DNA from: an uncultured Enterobacterales bacterium
Lineage (GTDB): Bacteria > Myxococcota_A > UBA796 > CAJQPC01
DNA: 64,000 nt
Assembly (NCBI GenBank): GCA_964519895.1
Contig: CAZFLE010000015.1
Span: forward strand, 2,073-66,072
Direction: 5' to 3'
The first letter of the stretch is position 1. Every line of letters begins with the position of its first letter. Shown here in pieces: positions 4,123-31,509 of the stretch. A model generated the notes under the pieces. That model was not told the origin of the DNA and did not search any database. It worked only from the letters and a program-made list of their open reading frames with translations. A program made the position numbers and the translations under genes.

Positions 4123-4286
4123 CTAGTCCCCTGTCTCACAAGTTCGTGAGGTGATCGCGCAGCCATCGCCGTGGCTGGTGGTCTGCTCGAGCGGCCGGTG
4201 TGGCCGAGTCACATCAAAGCGAGAGCGGGCCGCCAGGCGCGGCGAGGGCAAGTGAGCGCCCACGAACTTGTGAGACAGGGGACTAG
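4123..4286. mobile_element. MITE-like element, copy 1 (164 bp, perfect 26-bp terminal inverted repeats, flanked by CTAG)
   Basis: The left arm ctagtcccctgtctcacaagttcgtg is the exact reverse complement of the right arm cacgaacttgtgagacaggggactag. A gap-free colinear second copy lies at 28337-28500, and the two share an identical 27-nt core gcggccggtgtggccgagtcacatcaa. Confidence 0.7.
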
Positions 4287-18625: not shown

Positions 18626-19489
18626 TCAGGGCCCGGCCCGTTGGGGCTCCGGCATCCGCGCGAGCGCAGCCAGCCCGAGAGACGCCAGGGTCACACACGA
18701 CAGGGCAGTCAGCCAGGCGTTCCCCAGGACCCAGGCGGCCAACGTCGCCCCGGTCTCGCGCCAGACGATGTAGCCAGCCATGACCAGAACGAAGACGCCG
18801 AACCCGCGGCGAAGCGCCCCCTCGGGGACCCTGGACGCGAGCTTCGCACCAGCAAGCGCACCGACGACGGCGCCGGCGGTGACTGCGGCGGCAAGCTCGA
18901 AGTCGACCGACACATCAGCCGCGTGACCTGCAAACGCCGCGAACGACTTCAGCGCGATCACGAGCAGCGAGGTGCCGATCGCCCTGTGCATGTCCATTCC
19001 GCCAAGGAGAACCAGTGCCGGGACCACCAGGAAGCCGCCACCGGCACCGACCAGCCCGGTGGCGGCTCCCACGATGAGACCCTCGACGATAACCAGCGTC
19101 ACCGGCAGCGACCCGCCCTCCGACCGCCGCGCCGGCGTGCCGCGCCCGCGGAACATCCCGACAGCGGTCGCCACCATCATGGCGGCGAAGAGCAAGAGCA
19201 GCGTGGACCCGCTGAACCAGCCCGCCGCCCGGCCGCCGAGGTAGGCGCCAGCCATCGCCGTGGCGCCGAACAGCAACCCCGTGCGCCACGCGACGTTGCC
19301 CGAGCGTGCATGGGGCACGAGCGCGAAGGCTGAGGTCGTCCCAACGATCAGGAGGGACGTGGCGATGGCCTCGCGGGGCTCCAAGCCCACGGCGTAGGTC
19401 AGGATGGGGACCGCCAGGATCGACCCGCCACCGCCGAGGAGCCCGAGGGCGAGGCCGATGAGAACGGAGAGTGCAACAGCGAGCGCCAC
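18626..19489 (-). CDS. TauE/SafE (TSUP, DUF81) sulfite exporter family permease, copy 1
   Basis: 287 aa, polytopic, with repeated GGGGS/GAGGGF motifs. The GTG start is preceded by GGGAGG. Confidence 0.85.
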   Translation of the reverse strand: MALAVALSVLIGLALGLLGGGGSILAVPILTYAVGLEPREAIATSLLIVGTTSAFALVPHARSGNVAWRTGLLFGATAMAGAYLGGRAAGWFSGSTLLLLFAAMMVATAVGMFRGRGTPARRSEGGSLPVTLVIVEGLIVGAATGLVGAGGGFLVVPALVLLGGMDMHRAIGTSLLVIALKSFAAFAGHAADVSVDFELAAAVTAGAVVGALAGAKLASRVPEGALRRGFGVFVLVMAGYIVWRETGATLAAWVLGNAWLTALSCVTLASLGLAALARMPEPQRAGP

Positions 19490-19491
19490 GG

Positions 19492-19950
19492 CTACCTCCC
19501 CGCTTCAGCGGCGGCGGTGCGAGCGACGCGAGTCGCGGCGAAGCCGTCCAGGAAGTGAACCAGCAACATCCCACCGAGCATGGCTGCGACAAACGTGATC
19601 GCCTTGGGTCCGCCCGGCAGCGCTGAGACCACCGCAGGGCCGGGACAGTAGCCAGCCAGGCCCCACCCCACTCCGAAGAGGGCGGCGCCACCAACCAGCC
19701 GGCCATCGATGTCCCGCCTCGTCGGCCGGCTGAAGGACGTCGAGCACAGCGGCGCTGTTCGATGGTCGATGACCCGACGCAGAGGGGTGTGCACGAGGAG
19801 TGCCCCGACCATCACGACGCCGAGGCTGGGGTCCCACGGGCCAAGCAGGTCCAGGAAACCGACGACCACGTCCGGACGGGTCATCCCCGACACGACGAGG
19901 CCGGCGCCGAAGACCAGCCCGGAGAGAGCCGCTGTGATGAGACCCTTCAC
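19492..19950 (-). CDS. YeeE/YedE (sulfur transport, DUF395) half-protein B, copy 1
   Basis: Its GTG start overlaps the upstream stop (GTGA). It carries the [11 protein letters not shown] motif. Confidence 0.75.
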   Translation of the reverse strand: MKGLITAALSGLVFGAGLVVSGMTRPDVVVGFLDLLGPWDPSLGVVMVGALLVHTPLRRVIDHRTAPLCSTSFSRPTRRDIDGRLVGGAALFGVGWGLAGYCPGPAVVSALPGGPKAITFVAAMLGGMLLVHFLDGFAATRVARTAAAEAGR

Positions 19951-21433: not shown

Positions 21434-21468
21434 GGCAGAGCCCTCGGAGTGAGACAGCTTGGACAAGA

Positions 21469-21483
21469 GCAACGGGCGTGCCA
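21469..21483 (-). promoter_or_regulatory. Sigma-54 promoter (-24/-12) of sulfur module 1
   Basis: The minus strand reads TGGCACgcccgTTGC, an exact match to the TGGCAC-N5-TTGC consensus. It lies about 35 nt upstream of the pdo ATG. Confidence 0.75.
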
Positions 21484-21554: not shown

Positions 21555-22505
21555 ATGACGAAACAACATCGTCCAAAGACTCGGACGTTCCACGGCATGG
21601 TGACCGCCTCGCGGCAGATGGAGCGGCTGTTCGAGCTGGTAGGACGCGTCGCCGAGTCTGGCTCCTCCGTGCTGATCCGGGGGGAGACCGGCACGGGCAA
21701 AGAGCTGGTGGCGCGCGCCATCCACTCCTTGAGCCCTCGGCGGGACGCGACGTTCCGAGCAGTGAACTGCGCAACGCTCACGCCCGAGCTGCTTGCGTCG
21801 GAGCTGTTCGGGCACCGCCGGGGCGCCTTCACCGGAGCTGTACAGGACCGGCCCGGTCTCTTCGCTCTGGCCAATGGCGGCACGCTGTTCTTGGACGAGA
21901 TCGCCGAGATCCCGCTGGACATCCAGGGGCGCCTCCTCCGGGTCCTTCAGGAGCGCTCCTTCGTGCCTGTCGGCGGGACCGATCCAGTCCAGGTCGACGT
22001 GCGCGTCCTCGCGGCCACGCACCGTGCGCTGAGACGCGAGGTCGAGGCCGGGCGCTTCCGGGCCGACCTGATGTACCGGATCCGCGTCGTGCCGCTCTTC
22101 CTCCCGCGTCTGGTCGAGCGCTCCGGCGACATCGAAGCGCTGGCGTGGCACTTCATCGACGAGTTCAACGTCCGCGGGTTCCGCCAGGTCGAGCGCCTCG
22201 CCGCCGAGACCCTCGACCTGATGCACGCTCACGCCTGGCCGGGCAACGTCCGCGAGCTGCGCAACGTCATCGAGCACGCCTTCGTGATGGGAACCGGACC
22301 CGACCTGTTGCCGGGTGACCTGACGCCCGAGCTTCGCGGAGAGCCCCCGCCTGGAGACCCCGCCGACCGGACGGAAGAGAGCGCCGAGCGGGACCGCATC
22401 CTCACCGCGCTGAACCGCGCCCGAGGCCACAAGGGCAAGGCCGCCGAGTACCTCGGGTGGAGCCGGTCGACCCTGTGGCGAAAGATGCGCGAGCAACGAC
22501 TGTAG
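21555..22505 (+). CDS. Sigma-54-dependent transcriptional activator lacking an N-terminal sensory domain, copy 1
   Basis: 316 aa. The AAA+ core starts about 12 aa from the N-terminus ([27 protein letters not shown]). It has a C-terminal Fis-type HTH ([21 protein letters not shown]). Confidence 0.9.
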
Positions 22506-24131: not shown

Positions 24132-24680
24132 ATGGGGGCAACCGGACCATCGTGGGACCAACTGTACGAACATGCCGTCGCCCAGGCCGGGTATTTCACC
24201 ACCGCGCAGGCAGCGGAGGCCGGCTACTCGTCGCCACTGCTGCACAAGTACCTCGCCAACGGCAAGGTCATGCGCATCCGTCGCGGCGTGTACCGGCTGG
24301 CACACTTCCCGGCGGGCGACGACGAGGATCTGGTGGTGCTCTGGCTCTGGAGCGACCGCGAAGGCGTGTTCAGCCACGAGACCGCGCTGGTCCGCCACGA
24401 GCTGTCCGATCTGCTGCCGCACGACGCCGAGATGACGGTGCCGCCATCGTGGCGGCGTCGACGGCTGCGGGTCCCCATGGGGCTGCACCTCCACTTCGCG
24501 CCCGTCCCCGCAGGCGAGCGCACCTGGTATGGCGCCGTGCCGATCACGACCGCCGCCCGCACCATTCGGGACTGCCGAGCCGCAGGTGTGTCGCCGGAGT
24601 TCGTTGACCAGGCCATTCGGCAGGGCGTTGGGCGAGGGCTGTTCACGGAGGGCGAGGTTGGCAACGGGGGCAGGTCGTGA
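24132..24680 (+). CDS. AbiEi-family antitoxin / transcriptional regulator (type IV TA)
   Basis: GYFTTAQAAEAGYSSPLLHKYLANGKVMRIRRGVYRL matches the AbiEi N-terminal winged-helix pattern. It overlaps the toxin gene by 4 nt. Confidence 0.8.
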   Translation: MGATGPSWDQLYEHAVAQAGYFTTAQAAEAGYSSPLLHKYLANGKVMRIRRGVYRLAHFPAGDDEDLVVLWLWSDREGVFSHETALVRHELSDLLPHDAEMTVPPSWRRRRLRVPMGLHLHFAPVPAGERTWYGAVPITTAARTIRDCRAAGVSPEFVDQAIRQGVGRGLFTEGEVGNGGRS

Positions 24681-25579
24681 AGCGCTACGCCACGCCGCTC
24701 GCCTTCAAGGAGGCGCTCGAAGCCCGGCTCCGGGCGGCGTCTCGGTCTGGCGGCCAGGAGCAGAACCGGCTGCGGATGCGCCTGCTGATGGACCGTTTCG
24801 CCGCGCGCGTGGTCCATGAGTACGGCGAGCACGTCGTGCTCAAGGGCGGCGTCGTACTCGAGCTCCGCCTGTCAGAGGCCCGTGCGACCAAGGATCTCGA
24901 CCTTCGTCTGGTCGGCGACCCCGATGCCACCCTCACCAGGCTCCAACGCGCCGGCAGAGAGAACCTCGGGGATCACCTGGCGTTCGAGGTCGGGCCCGAC
25001 CCTCGCCACCCCACGATCGAGTCGGAGGGCATGCAATACCAGGGGCTCAGGTTCCGCGTTCAGGCCCGGCTCGCCGCCAAGGTCTACGGTGGCCCCTTCG
25101 GGGTCGACGCCGCCTTTGCGGAGCCTTTGGTGGGCGACCCCGAGCTGCTGCGTGGCTCCGAGTTCCTCGCCTTCGCCGGGGTCGAGCCGCCGACCCTCCT
25201 AGTCTACCCGCTGGAGGCGCACATCGCAGAGAAGCTGCACGCCTACACGCTGCCCCGCTCGCGTCCGAATTCCCGGGTGAAGGACCTGCCCGACCTTGCG
25301 CTGCTCGCCAGGGTCCGGCCCATTGATGCCGTCACGCTGCGGGACGCTCTCGATAGGACCTTCGCGCATCGAGCGGTTCACACGGTCCCCACCGAGGTAC
25401 CCGACCCGCCCGAGGCATGGCGAGTGCCGTACGCACGGTTGGCTCGTCGGGACCGCCTGCCGTGGATCGACCTCGCCGCGGTGGCCGAAACGACCCGAGC
25501 CTTCCTCGACCCCGTACTCTCCGGCGGTGGGGGGCTCTGGAGTCCCAGCGCCTGGCGGTGGGAGGCCGAAGAGCCCTGA
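24677..25579 (+). CDS. AbiEii/AbiGii nucleotidyltransferase toxin (DUF1814)
   Basis: 300 aa with the VLKGGVVLELRL..ATKDLDL nucleotidyltransferase motif and family-typical length. Confidence 0.85.
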   Translation: MKRYATPLAFKEALEARLRAASRSGGQEQNRLRMRLLMDRFAARVVHEYGEHVVLKGGVVLELRLSEARATKDLDLRLVGDPDATLTRLQRAGRENLGDHLAFEVGPDPRHPTIESEGMQYQGLRFRVQARLAAKVYGGPFGVDAAFAEPLVGDPELLRGSEFLAFAGVEPPTLLVYPLEAHIAEKLHAYTLPRSRPNSRVKDLPDLALLARVRPIDAVTLRDALDRTFAHRAVHTVPTEVPDPPEAWRVPYARLARRDRLPWIDLAAVAETTRAFLDPVLSGGGGLWSPSAWRWEAEEP

Positions 25580-25842
25580 GCGGATTCACAGCATGGCGCC
25601 GAGCGCGCGAACGTGGAAGATCCAGGCGCCGTCCCATCCCTCCGCTTCGACCCAGAAAGTTCGAACGTCGTCCAAGACGGCCCACCATCTCAGAGCAGCC
25701 GCTGGAGCCGATCCAGCGGCTGTTGCTGCTTCGCGTCGTGAACCAGTGCTAGCAGCGTCGCTTCGCCCAACTGCAGCCTGCCGCTCGCACAGCTCGTTGA
25801 CGTCGCCTGTGAACACCTCTACGTTGATGGCAGAGAACTACC

Positions 25843-26097
25843 ATGAGTACTACCATCGATTCTGCCGGAAGGTTGGTCATCCCCAAGGCCGTGCGCGACG
25901 CGGCCGGTATACAGCCAGGCACCCCCCTTGATGTGCGCTTCCGGGACGGGCGCATCGAGGTCGAGCCCGTGCCTCTCGACGTCACTATCGAGTCCGTCGG
26001 TGGCGTCGCCGTCGCCACGCCACGGGAGCCCGTCGACACGTTGTCGGCCGCGGCGGTCTCAGCCACCCGCGGCCGCCTGCGCGACGAGCGAGGCTGA
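25843..26097 (+). CDS. vapB: AbrB/SpoVT-fold antitoxin (VapB-like, module 2)
   Basis: SAGRLVIPKAVRDAAGIQPGTPLDV is a canonical SpoVT/AbrB swapped hairpin. Confidence 0.8.
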   Translation: MSTTIDSAGRLVIPKAVRDAAGIQPGTPLDVRFRDGRIEVEPVPLDVTIESVGGVAVATPREPVDTLSAAAVSATRGRLRDERG

Positions 26098-26116
26098 CCT
26101 GACCGCGGGCACCGCC

Positions 26117-26545
26117 TTGGACACCAGCGTCATCATCCCGGCGTTGCTGGCGTGGCACGAACACCATGGTGCAGCACTTCCCGTCGTCACCGAAGCCCTG
26201 GCCCAGGAAGAGCAAGCCATCCTCCCGCTACCCGCGCTGATCGAGGCCTACGCTGTGCTCACTCGTCTCCCAGCGCCATGGCGGCTGCGTGCCTCGGACG
26301 CTCACCGACTGCTGGTAGACACCTTTCGTGGCAGAGTGCGGGTCGTCGGCCTGGATGCAGACGACGCCTGGTCCCTCCTGTCCCAGGTGGTCACCAACGG
26401 CGTGTCGGGCGGCGCGACCTACGATGCCCACATCGCGGCATGTGCCAGGAAGGGCGGTGCCGGGCGCCTCGCCACCTTCAATCGTCGCCACTTCGAGCGC
26501 CTCGATCTCGGTGCTGTCGCCCTGTGGGTGCCGTCGGTCCACTGA
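26117..26545 (+). CDS. vapC: PIN-domain toxin VapC (module 2)
   Basis: LDTSVIIPALL at the N-terminus, GGATYDAHIAACA, and the C-terminal TFNRRHF. The start is ambiguous (TTG at 26117 or CTG at 26099) and lies just after the antitoxin stop. Confidence 0.7.
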   Translation: MDTSVIIPALLAWHEHHGAALPVVTEALAQEEQAILPLPALIEAYAVLTRLPAPWRLRASDAHRLLVDTFRGRVRVVGLDADDAWSLLSQVVTNGVSGGATYDAHIAACARKGGAGRLATFNRRHFERLDLGAVALWVPSVH

Positions 26546-26634
26546 CCCCGCCCTCAGGGCGGCTCCGGTGGATTCCCCGGCTCCCCAGTCACCGCGTGCA
26601 CCGCCTGGGCCGCACGGAGGTCTCGACCTGGACA

Positions 26635-26661
26635 ATACAGTTATAATCGTGTATATACATG
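26635..26661 (+). promoter_or_regulatory. AT-rich promoter/operator of the arsR-like gene
   Basis: ATACAgttataatcgTGTATATACAtg contains TATAAT (26642-26647) and the perfect 10-bp palindrome TGTATATACA, which abuts the start codon. The surrounding sequence is about 70% GC. Confidence 0.5.
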
Positions 26662-27003
26662 TTTATGAATACTTCACTCCAGGCCCTGGCAGACCCCAGC
26701 CGACGCCGCATCGTCGAGCTGCTGCTCGCCCGGGAGCTGCCGGTCGGCGAGCTGGTCGAGGCCTTGCCCATCGCCCAGTCCGGCGTGTCCCGGCACCTGC
26801 GCATCCTGCGAGAGGCCGGCATGGTGCGGTGCCGGGCAGAGGGTCAGCGGCGGCTCTACGCCCTACAACCCGAGCCCTTCGCCGAGCTCTCGGACTGGCT
26901 GGCCGAGGTGCGGCGGCACTGGGACCACAGTCTGGATCGCTTCGAGATGGCGCTGGCGCAGCGCCAGTCCCCCACCCCACCCGAGACCAAGGACGAGACA
27001 TGA
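26659..27003 (+). CDS. ArsR/SmtB family transcriptional regulator
   Basis: LADPSRRRIVELL...ELPVGELVEALPIAQSGVSRHLRILREAGMV is a winged HTH. The start may be the second ATG at 26665. Confidence 0.85.
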   Translation: MFMNTSLQALADPSRRRIVELLLARELPVGELVEALPIAQSGVSRHLRILREAGMVRCRAEGQRRLYALQPEPFAELSDWLAEVRRHWDHSLDRFEMALAQRQSPTPPETKDET

Positions 27004-27455
27004 GCACGCAACAGACCATCGAGCGGGTCTTCGACGCACCCCTGGCGCTGATCTGGGAGCTCTGGACCACCGCGGCGGGCCGCGGAGCCTGGTACGGGCC
27101 GCGAGGCTTCGTGACAGAGGTGCACCGCTACGAGCTGCACGTCGGGGGCGCGTTCGACTACACGATGCGGGCGGGCTCCCCCGAGATGGCCGCGAACATG
27201 GAGAAGATGGGCCGGCCCCCGTCCTTTACGGTGAACGCTGTCATCACGGCCATCGAGCCCATGACCCACCTGGCCTGGCGAGAGACCCACGGCAGCGCCA
27301 GCATCGACACGGCGGTGACCTTCACCGAGCAGCCCGAGGGCGTGCACATGACCCTGGTGCTCGCGGCCGCGACGGAGCAGCAGCTGGGCGGCGCCGCGAT
27401 GGGCTGGCGCAGCACACTCGACCGGCTCGAGGAGCAATTGGCACAAGGGGCCTGA
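27000..27455 (+). CDS. SRPBCC superfamily protein (AHSA1/Aha1-like)
   Basis: Its ATG overlaps the arsR stop (ATGA). IERVFDAPLALIWELWT is typical of AHSA1-domain partners of ArsR regulators. Confidence 0.75.
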   Translation: MSTQQTIERVFDAPLALIWELWTTAAGRGAWYGPRGFVTEVHRYELHVGGAFDYTMRAGSPEMAANMEKMGRPPSFTVNAVITAIEPMTHLAWRETHGSASIDTAVTFTEQPEGVHMTLVLAAATEQQLGGAAMGWRSTLDRLEEQLAQGA

Positions 27456-27467
27456 AACCTTGGGCGT

Positions 27468-28334
27468 TCACCTGGGCGCCGGGTGCTCCCGTTCCGGCGC
27501 CCGGGCGAGCGCACCCAGTCCGAGGGCCGCCAGGACCACGCCCCACAGACCGGCGATCCACCGGTTGTCGACCACCCAGGCGGCCGCAGACGCCCCGGTC
27601 TCCCGCCAGACGATGAAGCCGGCCATCGCCAGGACGAAGACCCCGAACCCACGACGGAGCGACGCTCCCGGGACCCTGGACGCGAGCTGGGCACCCGCCA
27701 GCGCGCCCAGCACGGCCCCGGCGGTGACCGCACCGGCCAGCGCCAGGTCGACGGGCACATCGACCGCGTGGCCCGCATAGGCCGCAAAGGACTTCAGGGC
27801 GATCACGAGCAACGAGGTTCCGATGGCCCGGTGCATGTCCATGCCCCCGAGCAGGACCAGCGCCGGCACCACCAGGAAGCCCCCGCCGGCGCCCACCAGC
27901 CCTGTCGCCGCTCCGACCCCCAAGCCCTCGGCGACCACCAAGGCCACTGGCGGGGACCCGGCCCAGGGCCCCGGGGCCGCCGAGCTGCGGCCTCGGAACA
28001 TGCCCAGGGCGGTGGCGACCATCATGGCGGCGAACAGCAGGAGCAGCGTCGATCCGCTGAACCACCCGGCCGCCCGGCCGCCGAGGTAGCCCCCGGCCAT
28101 CGCCGTGGCCCCGAACAAGAGCCCCGTGCGCCAGGCCACGTTGCCCGCCCGCGCATGGGGCCAGAGCGCAAAGGCCGACGTGGTCCCGACGATCAGCAAG
28201 GACGTGGCGATGGCCTCGCGCGGCTCCAGACCCACGGCATAGGTCAGGATCGGCACCGCGAGGATCGACCCACCACCGCCCATCAGGCCAAGGGCGAGGC
28301 CGATGAGCACGGAGAGCGCCACGGCGATCCACAC
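27468..28334 (-). CDS. TauE/SafE (TSUP) sulfite exporter family permease, copy 2
   Basis: Colinear with copy 1. A GTG at 28334 (or 28322) was chosen because the track ORF start at 28379 lies inside the inserted repeat element. Confidence 0.8.
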   Translation of the reverse strand: MWIAVALSVLIGLALGLMGGGGSILAVPILTYAVGLEPREAIATSLLIVGTTSAFALWPHARAGNVAWRTGLLFGATAMAGGYLGGRAAGWFSGSTLLLLFAAMMVATALGMFRGRSSAAPGPWAGSPPVALVVAEGLGVGAATGLVGAGGGFLVVPALVLLGGMDMHRAIGTSLLVIALKSFAAYAGHAVDVPVDLALAGAVTAGAVLGALAGAQLASRVPGASLRRGFGVFVLAMAGFIVWRETGASAAAWVVDNRWIAGLWGVVLAALGLGALARAPEREHPAPR

Positions 28335-28336
28335 GG

Positions 28337-28500
28337 CTATTCCCCTGTCGCAGAAGTTCGCGAGGCACTCGCGAAGCAATCGTCGCGCCTGGTGGATTCC
28401 AGACGCGGCCGGTGTGGCCGAGTCACATCAACGCGGCTGGGAGCCGCCAGGCGCGACGAGGGCGAGCGAGTGTCCGTGAACTTCTGCGACATGGGACTAG
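28337..28500. mobile_element. MITE-like element, copy 2, inserted in the yeeE-B/tauE junction of sulfur module 2
   Basis: 164 bp, gap-free colinear with copy 1. The arms are ctattcccctgtcgcagaagttcgcg and cgtgaacttctgcgacatgggactag (23 of 26 pair). It is flanked by CTA(T)/CTA(G). The paralogous junction in module 1 (19487-19492) has no insert. Confidence 0.7.
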
Positions 28501-28955
28501 TGCCGCCGCTCAGGAGAGGCGACGCGGGCCAGGGGTCTCCCGGCGAGGGCGTCCACGCGGTGCACCAGCACCATGCCGGCCAACATGGCGGCCAGGAAGG
28601 TGAGCGCCTTGGGGCCGCCCGGCAGGGCAGAGACCACCGCAGGGCCCGGACAGTAGCCAGCCAGACCCCAGCCCACGCCAAAGAGGGCGGCGCCCACGAC
28701 CAGGCGGGCGTCGAGGTCCCGCCGGGTCGGCATCCTGAAGGCGTCGGAGCACAGGGGCGACCGCCGGCGTTCGATCAACCAGCGCAGCGGGGCGTGCACG
28801 AGCAGGGCCCCGACCATCACGACCCCCAGGCTCGGGTCCCAGGTGCCGAGGACGTCCAAGAAGCCGACGACCACGTCGGGGCGGGTCATCCCCGACACCA
28901 CGAGGCCGATGCCAAAGACCAGGCCCGAGGCGGCTGCGGTGATCAGTCCCCTCAC
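28497..28955 (-). CDS. YeeE/YedE half-protein B, copy 2
   Basis: GTGA start overlap as in copy 1, with the [11 protein letters not shown] motif. Its TAG stop lies in the terminal CTAG of the inserted element. Confidence 0.75.
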
Positions 28956-29383
28956 AGCCCACCTCCCAGCCACTGGCTGACCGCGGTGGCGCTGGCCGCG
29001 CCGGTGGCCATGAAGGTGAGCACGCTGACCAGCGAGCGCGGGGAGCTCCGAGCCAGCCCACACACGCCGTGCCCGCTGGTGCAGCCGTTCCCGAGCCGAG
29101 TGCCAGCGCCCACCAGCATCCCCGCGACGACGAGAGCGGCGGTGGACCGAGAGAGCGGATTCACGAAGGCCTCGGGAGCGGCAGGGGCGAGCAACAGTCC
29201 CGCCCCACTCAGCCCGATCACGAACGCGCCCTGGAGATGGCGGTCCCCAGTGCGACGCTGGAGCAGCCCGCCGACGATGCCGCTGATCCCAGCGACGCGA
29301 CCGTTGAACAACAGGTAGCCGGACGCCGCCAAGCCGATGAGCATCCCGCCCACGAGCGGCGGGAGGAGCGCTTGAATGGTCAT
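28952..29383 (-). CDS. YeeE/YedE half-protein A, copy 2
   Basis: ATGA overlap with the pdo stop, with the [12 protein letters not shown] motif. Confidence 0.75.
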
Positions 29384-30438
29384 CGTGTGGCTCCGTCGCT
29401 GGACACCCGCACCACTGGGAGGCCAAGGGCGGTCCAGGCGGCCATGCCGCCTTCCACGGACGCGACCTGGGCCAAGCCACGGGCCCGGAGCCCCAAGGCG
29501 GCGTCGCCCGAACGCCGGCCCGAGTGGCAGACCAGGGCGACCCGAGCGTCGCTCGACCACGCGCCCGCGGCCTCGCCGAGCTCGCCAAGGGGGACCCGCA
29601 AGGCGTTGGGAATGCACCCCAGCGGTCCGCAGCACTCGACCGGCTCGCGAATGTCGACCACCTGAAGCCGCGCCGGGTTCGCCGCCACCCACTGGGGGTC
29701 GACCTCGGGGATGCCGCCGCGGCTCATGACGATGGGAAGGCCCGTCGCAGGCACCCCGCACGCCCGGTTCGCGGGCAGCGCGACGTCGATGCGCCTGGGG
29801 TAGGGAAGCCCTAGCCCGTTCATCAAGCGGATGAAGTCAGCCTCGGGGCGTCCCTGCCCGAGCCGGGCATTGTGTTGCTTCTCGACGCCCACGGTGCTGA
29901 CCGTGCGGCCCCTGTAGTCGTGGCCGGGGTACACCCGGGTGGCGTCCGGAAGCGTGAAGATCTGCTCGTGCACGGAGCGGTAGAGGGTGCTCGCGTCGCC
30001 CTCCTGGAAGTCCGTGCGTCCGCAGCCGCCGATCAGCAGGGCGTCCCCGGTGAAGACCATGGCCTGGTCCAGGGTGACGAAGCTCACGCAGCCCGCGGTG
30101 TGACCCGGCGTGGCCCGGACCTGCAGCCCAAATCGACCGAACCGCACGACCTCGCCGTGCCCGACGGTCTGGTCGGAGCAGCTCACCCCTGCGGCCTCGC
30201 TGACCACCGCCTCGCAGCCGAGGCGGTCACGGAAAGCCGTGGCGCCGGTCACGTGATCGGCGTGCACGTGGGTGTCGAGCGTGCACACCAGGCGCAGGCC
30301 CAGCTCCTCGACCAGGGCCGCATCCCGCTCGACCTGCTCCAGCACGGGATCGATGATGACCGCCTGGGCACTGACGGGATCGGCCAGGAGGTAGGTGTAG
30401 GTGGAGGTGTCCGGGTCGAACAGCTGTCGGAAGATCAT
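29380..30438 (-). CDS. Persulfide dioxygenase-rhodanese fusion, copy 2
   Basis: 352 aa starting [18 protein letters not shown], with THVHADHV and a rhodanese CHSGRRS loop. Confidence 0.85.
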
Positions 30439-30472
30439 CGGGGTGCCTGGGAGGGAGTTGGCTTCACTGTGA

Positions 30473-30487
30473 GCAACGGCCGTGCCA
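30473..30487 (-). promoter_or_regulatory. Sigma-54 promoter (-24/-12) of sulfur module 2
   Basis: The minus strand reads TGGCACggccgTTGC, an exact consensus spacing, in the same position relative to pdo as in module 1. Confidence 0.75.
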
Positions 30488-30558: not shown

Positions 30559-31509
30559 ATGAAGCAATATGATCGTCCAAGCACGCGCACATTCCACGGC
30601 ATGGTGACCGCGTCACCCCAGATGGCCCATCTCTTCGCGCTGGTGGCGCGCGTCTCCGAGCCTGATTCGTCTGTGTTGATCCGCGGAGAGACCGGCACCG
30701 GCAAGGAGCTCGTTGCCCGGGCCATTCATGCCCTGAGCCCCCGCCGGAACGCGGCCTTTCGGGCGGTCAACTGCGCCACCCTCACCCCCGAGCTGCTCGC
30801 GTCGGAGCTGTTCGGGCACCGTCGCGGCGCCTTCACCGGGGCCATCCGGGACAAGCCTGGTCTGTTCCAGCTCGCCGACGGCGGCACGCTCTTCCTGGAC
30901 GAGATCGCCGAGATCCCCTTGGACATCCAGGGGCGACTGCTGCGGGTCCTGCAGGAGCGCTCCTTCGTGCCGGTGGGCGGGACCGAGCCGGTGCAGGTCG
31001 ACGTGCGCGTGCTGGCGGCGACGCACCGAGCCCTCCGCCGCGAAGTCCAAGCCGGGCGCTTCCGGGCAGACCTGATGTACCGGGTCCGTGTGGTGCCGCT
31101 GTTTCTCCCGCGCCTGGTGGAGCGCACGGGCGACATCGAGGCCCTGGCCTGGCACTTCATCGACGACTTCAACCGGCGGGGCTTCCGGCAGGTCGACCAT
31201 CTGGCGCCAGAGACCCTGGACCTGCTCCACGCCCACCCGTGGCCGGGCAACGTGCGCGAGCTCCGGAACGTCATCGAGCACGCCTTCGTGATGGGCACGG
31301 GCCCCGACCTGGTGCCCGACGACCTGACGCCCGAGCTTCGCGGGGAGCCGCCGCGGGCAGACCCCGGCGCGGCGACCGCGCTCCAGGCCGAGCGGGACCG
31401 GATCCTGTCGGCGCTGAACCGCGCGCGAGGGCACAAGGGCAAGGCCGCGGAGATCCTGGGGTGCAGCCGATCGACGCTGTGGCGGAAGATGCGGGAGCAG
31501 CGGCTCTGA
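30559..31509 (+). CDS. Sigma-54-dependent transcriptional activator lacking a sensory domain, copy 2
   Basis: 316 aa, colinear with copy 1 (about 45 mismatches by hand alignment). It has GAFTGA, Walker A/B and a Fis HTH. Confidence 0.9.
   Translation: MKQYDRPSTRTFHGMVTASPQMAHLFALVARVSEPDSSVLIRGETGTGKELVARAIHALSPRRNAAFRAVNCATLTPELLASELFGHRRGAFTGAIRDKPGLFQLADGGTLFLDEIAEIPLDIQGRLLRVLQERSFVPVGGTEPVQVDVRVLAATHRALRREVQAGRFRADLMYRVRVVPLFLPRLVERTGDIEALAWHFIDDFNRRGFRQVDHLAPETLDLLHAHPWPGNVRELRNVIEHAFVMGTGPDLVPDDLTPELRGEPPRADPGAATALQAERDRILSALNRARGHKGKAAEILGCSRSTLWRKMREQRL

Follow-up and report, generated by a model that had tools for sequence, protein, structure and literature searches.

The DNA analysed here, a 64-kb stretch of contig CAZFLE010000015.1 (hereafter the window), carries two related gene modules that share the make-up metallo-beta-lactamase-fold (MBL)-rhodanese, Sulf_transp, DUF6691, TauE and are ~80% identical to each other at the DNA level. 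In module 2, a sulfur-detoxification operon, the last two genes, yeeE-B and tauE, are separated by a 164-bp insertion that we assign to a family of MITEs (transposable elements of the miniature inverted-repeat type) and call copy A. The original prediction, made from the letters of the window, had placed a MITE-like mobile element at this stop/start junction; a repeat family and an empty paralogous junction bear this out. The features concerned are, in window positions:

28337-28500: MITE copy A, the whole insertion, CTAT + 156-bp element + CTAG = 164 bp (family-profile nhmmer E = 2.6e-44)
28341-28496: element body, one long imperfect hairpin of ~65 pairs
28497-28500, minus strand: CTAG, target copy 1; its TAG (28499-28497) is the stop codon of DUF6691/yeeE-B
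28337-28340, minus strand: target copy 2, reading ATAG (1 base off CTAG), with CC and the tauE GTG next
28341-28362, plus strand: terminal inverted repeat, left arm TTCCCCTGTCGCAGAAGTTCGC
28475-28496: terminal inverted repeat, right arm on the plus strand (listed as a minus-strand feature)
28405-28431, plus strand: apical core GCGGCCGGTGTGGCCGAGTCACATCAA, the same in every family copy found
27468-28334, minus strand: tauE-2 (TauE/SafE, PF01925), last gene of module 2, GTG start
28497-28955, minus strand: yeeE-B-2 (DUF6691, PF20398; Pfam E = 1.6e-42), 152 aa, directly upstream of the element
28952-29383, minus strand: yeeE-A-2 (Sulf_transp, PF04143)
29380-30438, minus strand: MBL-fold/rhodanese fusion, first gene of module 2
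19481-19500, minus strand: empty paralogous junction of module 1, GGGAGG TAG CC GTG GCG CTC
4123-4286, plus strand: copy B of the same MITE family, CTAG on both sides, 22 nt past the stop of a minus-strand 773-aa open reading frame (ORF)

On the minus strand the module-2 junction reads ...CGG CGG CAC TAG / TCCCATGTCGCAGAAGTTC...GAACTTCTGCGACAGGGGA / ATAG CC GTG TGG (slashes mark element borders here and below) or, with longer stretches of the element, CAC TAG / TCCCATGTCGCAGAAGTTCACGG ... CGAACTTCTGCGACAGGGGA / ATAG CC GTG TGG ATC. As originally proposed, the first TAG copy (28499-28497) ends yeeE-B and the TAGccGTG context ahead of tauE is retained, as in module 1. The plus-strand flanks are CTAT and CTAG. 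Of the flanking duplication that had been postulated, the TAG-containing target on both sides stands, but the two copies are one base apart and thus not exact. The element proper measures 156 bp (28341-28496) if CTAG was duplicated and 158 bp (28340-28497) if only TA was, which lies within the size range of MITEs (<~300 bp), and shows no transposase similarity inside.

The GTG start of tauE-2 (28334-28332) is also the start of a 100% identical 288-aa database protein (P0001). A mechanical ORF with a TTG start at 28379 extends into the element, as had been noticed before, an instance of the element misleading ORF callers. yeeE-B has the same length in modules 1 and 2, so its protein was not altered by the insertion. 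The idea that the insertion supplies the stop codon holds in a narrow sense only: if TA was duplicated, the G of TAG is the first base of the element, which replaces an identical base and leaves the protein unchanged.

In the paralog and in relatives the same junction is tight and empty, which answers the possibility, raised in the original prediction, that all relatives share the 164 bp as an ancestral spacer. The gap between the DUF6691 gene and tauE is +2 nt in module 1, +7 nt in locus L031 (TauE 72% identical), +7 nt in L050 and L051, and a 7-nt overlap in the contig carrying protein P0008, vs 162 nt in module 2. P0002 is the window's own module-1 TauE; the next homolog after it is 72% identical. 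The tetranucleotide at the module-1 junction is GTAG (agG-TAG), not CTAG, and hence offers no target, whereas the module-2 target is caC-TAG, the last sense codon plus the stop.

Copy A is one of many dispersed copies, which we searched for with a 21-mer and a 25-mer taken from the apical core. The window contains two occurrences of the 25-nt core vs 0 expected, and a family-profile search returned exactly two copies in the 64 kb, A and B, which have a 27-nt apical core in common. In a scan of one genome per species, the core 21-mer gave 26 matches, all in the related metagenome-assembled genome (MAG) CAYFPX01 and with unrelated flanks; three further family copies lie in metagenome contigs. 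The objection, anticipated in the original prediction, that the sequence might exist nowhere else thus fails, and the flanking pattern recurs at the other copies. Every full copy is exactly 164 bp long with its flanking tetranucleotides, and most read CTAG/TGTCCTGTCTCAGAAGTTCGTG ... CACGAACTTCTGAGACAGGACA/CTAG. Relative to the MAG master copy, copy B is ~91% and copy A ~80% identical. The arms of the master copy are near-perfect over 25 nt; those of copy A span 26 nt at 88% complementarity with a longest perfect run of 14 bp, so that the perfect stem of 23-26 bp originally described gives way to an imperfect hairpin of ~65 pairs. Size, lack of a transposase gene, terminal inverted repeats, dispersed copies, duplicated flanks and the empty paralogous site together identify a MITE.

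The 'Enterobacterales' label of MAG CAYFPX01 seems wrong given its 70% GC; judged solely by the names given for the sources of the closest TauE homologs, the host bacteria are probably Myxococcota-like. Some loci hold altered forms of the element. L009 (1562-1885) contains a head-to-tail dimer of two MITE copies around a single shared central C(G)AG, which agrees with an insertion into the CTAG beside a resident copy. L019 (5468-5540) has two tandem solo terminal-repeat fragments; solo terminus matches in L005 and L019 were considered as full insertion sequences (ISs) and rejected, being fragments only. L006 (5695-5735) carries 38-41 nt of the apical core alone (GGTCTGCTCGAGCGGCCGGTGTGGCCGAGTCACATCAAC), 100% identical, in an unrelated context without terminal repeats. 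L020 (240-310) has, in place of the MITE's left half, a ~60-bp AT-rich stretch between the arms of a 10-bp inverted repeat (GGGGTCAGAG / CTCTGACCCC), which may be a different tiny palindromic element.

The termini reveal the transposon family to which the element is related. A query of annotated plasmids with the 30-nt terminus at a relaxed E-value matched the ends of IS630-family elements. One from a Pseudomonas plasmid, CTA/GTGTCCTGTCTCAGATAAAA...TTTTTGAGACAGAACAC/TAG, is identical to the MITE terminus at 15/15 nt, and a Rhodococcus plasmid element, likewise flanked by CTA and TAG, reads CTA/GTGTTCTGAGTCAGG ... CCTGACTCAGAACAC/TAG. When all fetched loci were searched by tblastn with the plasmid transposases, a single homolog emerged, 52% identical to the Rhodococcus transposase, at locus L026 of MAG CAYFPX01, the host of the 26 MITE copies. 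The 5' end of this element (CTA/GTGTCCTGTCTCAGAAG) equals the MITE terminus at 17/17 nt; at its 3' end (...GGGACAC/TAG) the flank contributes the transposase stop codon. Its ORF contains Pfam DDE_3 and helix-turn-helix domains and scores 272.9 bits against NCBIfam NF033545 'IS630 family transposase' (cut-off 100). Past the first 17 nt, the MITE interior is unrelated to the interior of the L026 IS. Because the termini match IS630-family elements, including this transposase-bearing copy in the same MAG, we attribute the MITE to the IS630 family and abandon the earlier attribution to IS5. A run of N (L026 1372-1406, masked or a scaffold gap) lies ~40 nt past the right end of the IS630 element and makes its downstream context uncertain.

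A metagenome scan with the 19-nt terminus uncovered three other MITE families (L032/L034/L038-L040/L042; L033/L036; L035), from organisms of 57-70% GC, that have the same CTAG/TGTCCTGTCTCAGAAGTTCGTG terminus, CTAG flanks and unrelated interiors. Shared termini with differing interiors are the pattern expected if one IS lineage repeatedly spawns MITEs. L034 holds a tandem MITE pair. A search of plasmids with the whole element at E <= 0.01 found nothing, and a single terminus match in a viral contig, which has neither a CTAG flank nor a second inverted arm nearby, was judged to be chance within coding DNA.

IS630 inserts at the TA within 5'-CTAG-3' (Tenzen 1990, 1991, as cited in PMC2170065). 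Unequal outer bases at L039 (ATAG/CTAG), L044, L014 and L038 (.../CTAC) favour a 2-bp TA duplication, which from these flanking sequences is more likely than a duplication of CTAG but unproven.

The target also explains where the copies lie. In a 256-kb pool of the window and MAG loci L005-L029 (genomes of ~70% GC), CTAG was observed 60 times vs 672 expected from base composition, an ~11-fold depletion. MITE copies are flanked by 39 of these 60 sites, a share inflated by the choice of MAG loci for containing MITEs; 12 of the 21 others are stop codons of gene-like ORFs (at least 100 codons, third-position GC content at least 0.85). The TAG stops of such ORFs are preceded by G more often than by C (83 GTAG vs 26 CTAG). 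The window alone has 10 CTAG sites, and the flank variants of MITEs are mostly CCAG or CTGG. About 17 of the 26 family copies abut the TAG stop of a gene, and two other copies (L024, L011) also occupy stop/start junctions; the orientation of copies relative to the abutting genes shows no significant bias (~6 vs 13). Thus, copies land on stop codons because of CTAG specificity combined with CTAG scarcity, over half of the remaining sites being stop codons. Placement exactly at a junction follows from the choice of target in the family as a whole. The original wording, an insertion exactly into the junction, is right about the location and wrong in so far as it implies special junction targeting.

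The whole region has a folding energy of -113 kcal/mol (z = -7.6); none of 200 shuffles was as stable. In every copy one strand is ~30 kcal/mol more stable than its complement (-122 vs -92.5 kcal/mol); in module 2 the operon mRNA (minus strand) carries the weaker folder (element body -101 kcal/mol vs -125 for the other strand). Aligning 16 distinct copies revealed that in 13 of 65 pairs both bases have changed with pairing kept, compared with 3.9 +/- 1.2 for shuffles (0/500 reach 13) and 0-3 for slid controls. Between copy A and the master, 33 positions differ: both bases are replaced in ten pairs, all of them still Watson-Crick, and only one base in five others, of which four are broken, including both termini. 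The four broken pairs look like decay after insertion and probably immobilise copy A. Upkeep of the hairpin symmetry could reflect transposition requirements, re-palindromisation or RNA-level selection. A search of Rfam returned no family above its gathering score, the best being eukaryotic miRNA-precursor hairpins (37.9 bits vs 90).

In the mRNA, the complement of the left arm ends with AGGGGA (28346-28341), a putative Shine-Dalgarno-like motif that precedes the tauE GTG by 6 nt and in the predicted fold pairs with UCCC just past the yeeE-B stop codon. Between 27900 and 28900, on both strands, we found no terminator-like site; the GC-rich hairpin is followed by AAUAGCCGUG and is thus without the U run of an intrinsic terminator. 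The element and its vicinity have no sigma-70-like promoter consensus. One sigma-54-like match within the element (28375-28390, 2 mismatches) was rejected as a promoter, as such matches occur at chance level (26 observed vs 25 +/- 5) and the true operon sigma-54 promoters, unlike this one, are perfect. The promoters and their activators are:

30472-30487, minus strand: perfect sigma-54 promoter consensus TGGCACGGCCGTTGCT of module 2
30559-31509, plus strand: divergent sigma-54 activator gene of module 2
21468-21483, minus strand: perfect sigma-54 promoter consensus TGGCACGNCCGTTGCT of module 1 (the same consensus as before module 2)
21555-22505, plus strand: divergent sigma-54 activator gene of module 1

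With perfect sigma-54 promoters and divergent activators at both modules, tauE would be fourth among the cistrons of one transcript.

Taken together, we consider it highly probable that copy A is an old, probably immobilised MITE with termini of the IS630 family (Tc1/mariner-related, DDE) that was moved in trans to a CTAG site. An IS630 transposase, acting in trans, would bind the ~17-23 bp terminal inverted repeats and paste the element into the TA of CTAG, duplicating TA. As the element starts with G and ends with C, CTAG would be rebuilt on both sides, so that an insertion would restore the stop codon and leave the genes on both sides intact. Here the target would have been the caC + TAG at the end of yeeE-B, with 2 nt between it and the tauE GTG; insertion would have rebuilt the stop codon in place, kept TAGccGTG, left both proteins unchanged and turned a 2-nt junction into one of 162 nt. 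The sigma-54-driven polycistronic mRNA would thereby gain a ~65-bp hairpin without a U-tract, through which transcription most likely reads. The base of the hairpin would pair the post-stop region with the AGGGGA motif and the tauE start region, and translation of tauE-2 would then need the stem base to open, e.g. by ribosomes terminating at the adjacent UAG. Equally plausibly, alone or in addition, RNase III may cut the stem as it does in Neisseria Correia elements.

Several observations weigh against this interpretation or parts of it. Beyond the same strain, the protein database contains no strict module-2 ortholog with an empty site, the next TauE being 72% identical, so that the empty-site evidence depends on the paralog and more distant homologs. 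Among the fetched loci there is no autonomous IS630 element with the termini of the window sub-family (TCCCCTGTC..., TCCCCTG...), and tblastn found no IS630 transposase homolog in the window. The right-end repeat of the L026 element matches its own left end over only ~8 nt, and this copy is possibly defective. TA and CTAG duplication both predict CTAG...CTAG, hence the flanks alone do not separate them, and L032 (CTAA/CTAA) favours a 4-bp duplication. As to the putative effects on expression, constrained folding raises the predicted accessibility of the Shine-Dalgarno motif only from 0.21 to ~0.46-0.49, and the same naive folding shows the module-1 Shine-Dalgarno motif fully paired, so the model is not discriminating.

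Two alternatives concern the origin of the 164 bp. An IS5-family-derived MITE with a true 4-bp CTAG (or 3-bp TNA) duplication would fit the CTAA on both sides of L032, a sister-family copy, and the CCAG on both sides of L005 and L037, which read naturally as 4-bp duplications, and IS5-type elements do duplicate CTAG (MITEPsy1, PMC3189936). However, the termini match IS630-family elements, one of them in the same MAG, L039, L044, L014 and L038 fit a 2-bp TA duplication better, and we met no IS5-family element with these ends; the sole IS5-family element that we came across, L047, is flanked by a TTA duplication, and its ends (GAGCGTCCGGCAAATG) are unrelated. An IS5 origin is therefore very unlikely. 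The second alternative, an ancestral structured intergenic spacer or an intrinsic terminator or attenuator with no insertion at all, draws on the very stable GC-rich hairpin between two cistrons and on the presence of the same sequence in all five metagenome assemblies of the locus, the metagenomes with the locus being ERZ27251152, ERZ27249630, JGI 3300009703, JGI 3300011013 and SRR6056609. These five contigs (99.96-100% identity, all filled) represent one strain and hence are not independent evidence, the hairpin has no U-tract, and the paralog and relatives show junctions of -7 to +7 nt. With at least 30 copies that have unrelated flanks and CTAG borders, the family's distribution effectively refutes the spacer, and we give it next to no chance of being correct.

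A third alternative concerns function: the hairpin may have been selected as a strand-specific RNA or single-stranded DNA structure, a post-transcriptional control module that sets tauE-2 expression apart from that of its paralog, for instance by offering a site to RNase III, by stabilising the mRNA or by gating translational coupling through the hairpin. The 13 of 65 compensated pairs, above both shuffles and slid controls, the Watson-Crick pairing kept by copy A at all ten doubly changed pairs, the ~30 kcal/mol advantage of one strand in all copies and the AGGGGA that the element terminus supplies 6 nt ahead of GTG would agree with such a role, as would the precedent of Correia/NEMIS RNA hairpins as RNase III substrates (PMC2229807). 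Yet transposition needs, or descent from differently evolved masters, can keep the symmetry without any RNA function; the orientation bias (~6 vs 13) is not significant, the operon mRNA holds the weaker-folding strand, the coupling fold model gives no clear answer and no Rfam family exceeds its threshold. We thus regard selection for a control module as unlikely. Somewhat more doubtful is the broader proposal that the family as a whole is a mobile 3'-end or inter-cistronic RNA module, selected strand-specifically and delivered by way of CTAG onto stop codons that it rebuilds, with tauE-2 regulated unlike tauE-1.

Two further candidates bearing on the family assignment were set aside. An 'IS5 family transposase' beside a matching terminus in a Rhodococcus plasmid proved to belong to an element in its own right, which sits in an IS630-like remnant and has ends of its own and a TTA duplication. 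REP/BIME repeats (RAYT, IS200/IS605-type) do not apply to an element of 156 bp with IS630-like termini and duplicated CTAG/TA flanks. In the Rhodococcus rhodochrous plasmid NZ_CP120358.1, the nested IS5-family element (L047 2004-3050) lies in a remnant that starts with the IS630-like terminus CTAGTGTCCTGCGTCAGAAGTTAC, and this remnant directly adjoins a complete IS630-family element.

The IS630-derived MITE described here resembles several known systems. The RUP element of Streptococcus pneumoniae, for which mobilisation by IS630-Spn1 has been proposed, is likewise small and non-coding, with termini like those of an IS630-family IS of the same genome, and likewise occurs in many copies, at targets containing TA, and forms a long stem-loop in its transcript (PMC2229807). 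RUP differs in being 107 bp long and AT-rich, with 9-bp contiguous repeats and a frequent location inside other insertion sequences; the present element has 156-158 bp, ~70% GC, terminal repeats of 17-25 bp, a strict CTAG context and mostly stop-codon locations. IS630 of Shigella sonnei and its family have the TA-in-CTAG target and the termini GTGTCCTGTCTCAGA... in common with the element, which in contrast lacks a transposase, is unrelated to them past 17 nt and has a near-complete palindrome as its interior. Correia/NEMIS elements of Neisseria are MITEs of ~107-155 bp with long terminal repeats and TA ends that are co-transcribed with their neighbours; as RNA, their hairpins are reported to be cut by RNase III and to modulate the mRNAs on either side (PMC2229807). 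They have no sequence similarity to the present element, and IHF sites and outward promoters are theirs, whereas no promoter consensus was found here. MITEPsy1 of Pseudomonas syringae (IS5/ISPsy2-related) targets CTAG or YTAA and, like the present element, is flanked by that tetranucleotide (PMC3189936). It differs in its length of 100 bp, its GGAAGGTCTGAAAAAGCC-type IS5 ends, a genuine 4-nt duplication and unrelated terminal repeats. By analogy, the closest described counterpart is RUP/IS630-Spn1, and the best functional parallel for a MITE hairpin in an operon transcript is Correia/NEMIS. The elements found here belong to uncultured bacteria and form a GC-rich MITE family of the IS630 type that was previously undescribed; they leave the known nature of MITEs unchanged.

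The family illustrates neatly how the specificity for a target and the scarcity of an oligonucleotide jointly steer a transposon to 'safe' sites. Modules 1 and 2 form a natural pair of similar operons, with and without a 65-bp inter-cistronic hairpin, that could be used to study coupling and processing. In addition, short-read assemblies break right at the border of the element. Locus contigs L001-L004, from four independent assemblies, stop 141, 123, 103 and 30 nt inside the element when counting starts at the C of CTAG (window positions 28360, 28378, 28398 and 28471), and a fifth contig, L030, begins exactly at CTAG (28500). These distances look like assembler k-mer sizes, the k values being presumed; if they are, the assembly graph would branch at the element border, and the same element sequence would be joined to other flanks in those samples.

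We looked for relaxed selection on tauE-2 through dN/dS between the modules and saw none: at 0.16, tauE has the lowest value among the four module-1/module-2 gene pairs. By this measure, tauE-2 is still a functional gene under purifying selection, with no sign of silencing. Directly downstream of it (~24600-27450, L030 gene calls) lie an AHSA1/ArsR-type pair, a PIN/MazE-type toxin-antitoxin pair and an AbiEii/AbiEi pair. These neighbours suggest that module 2 is located in a variable, possibly horizontally acquired region.

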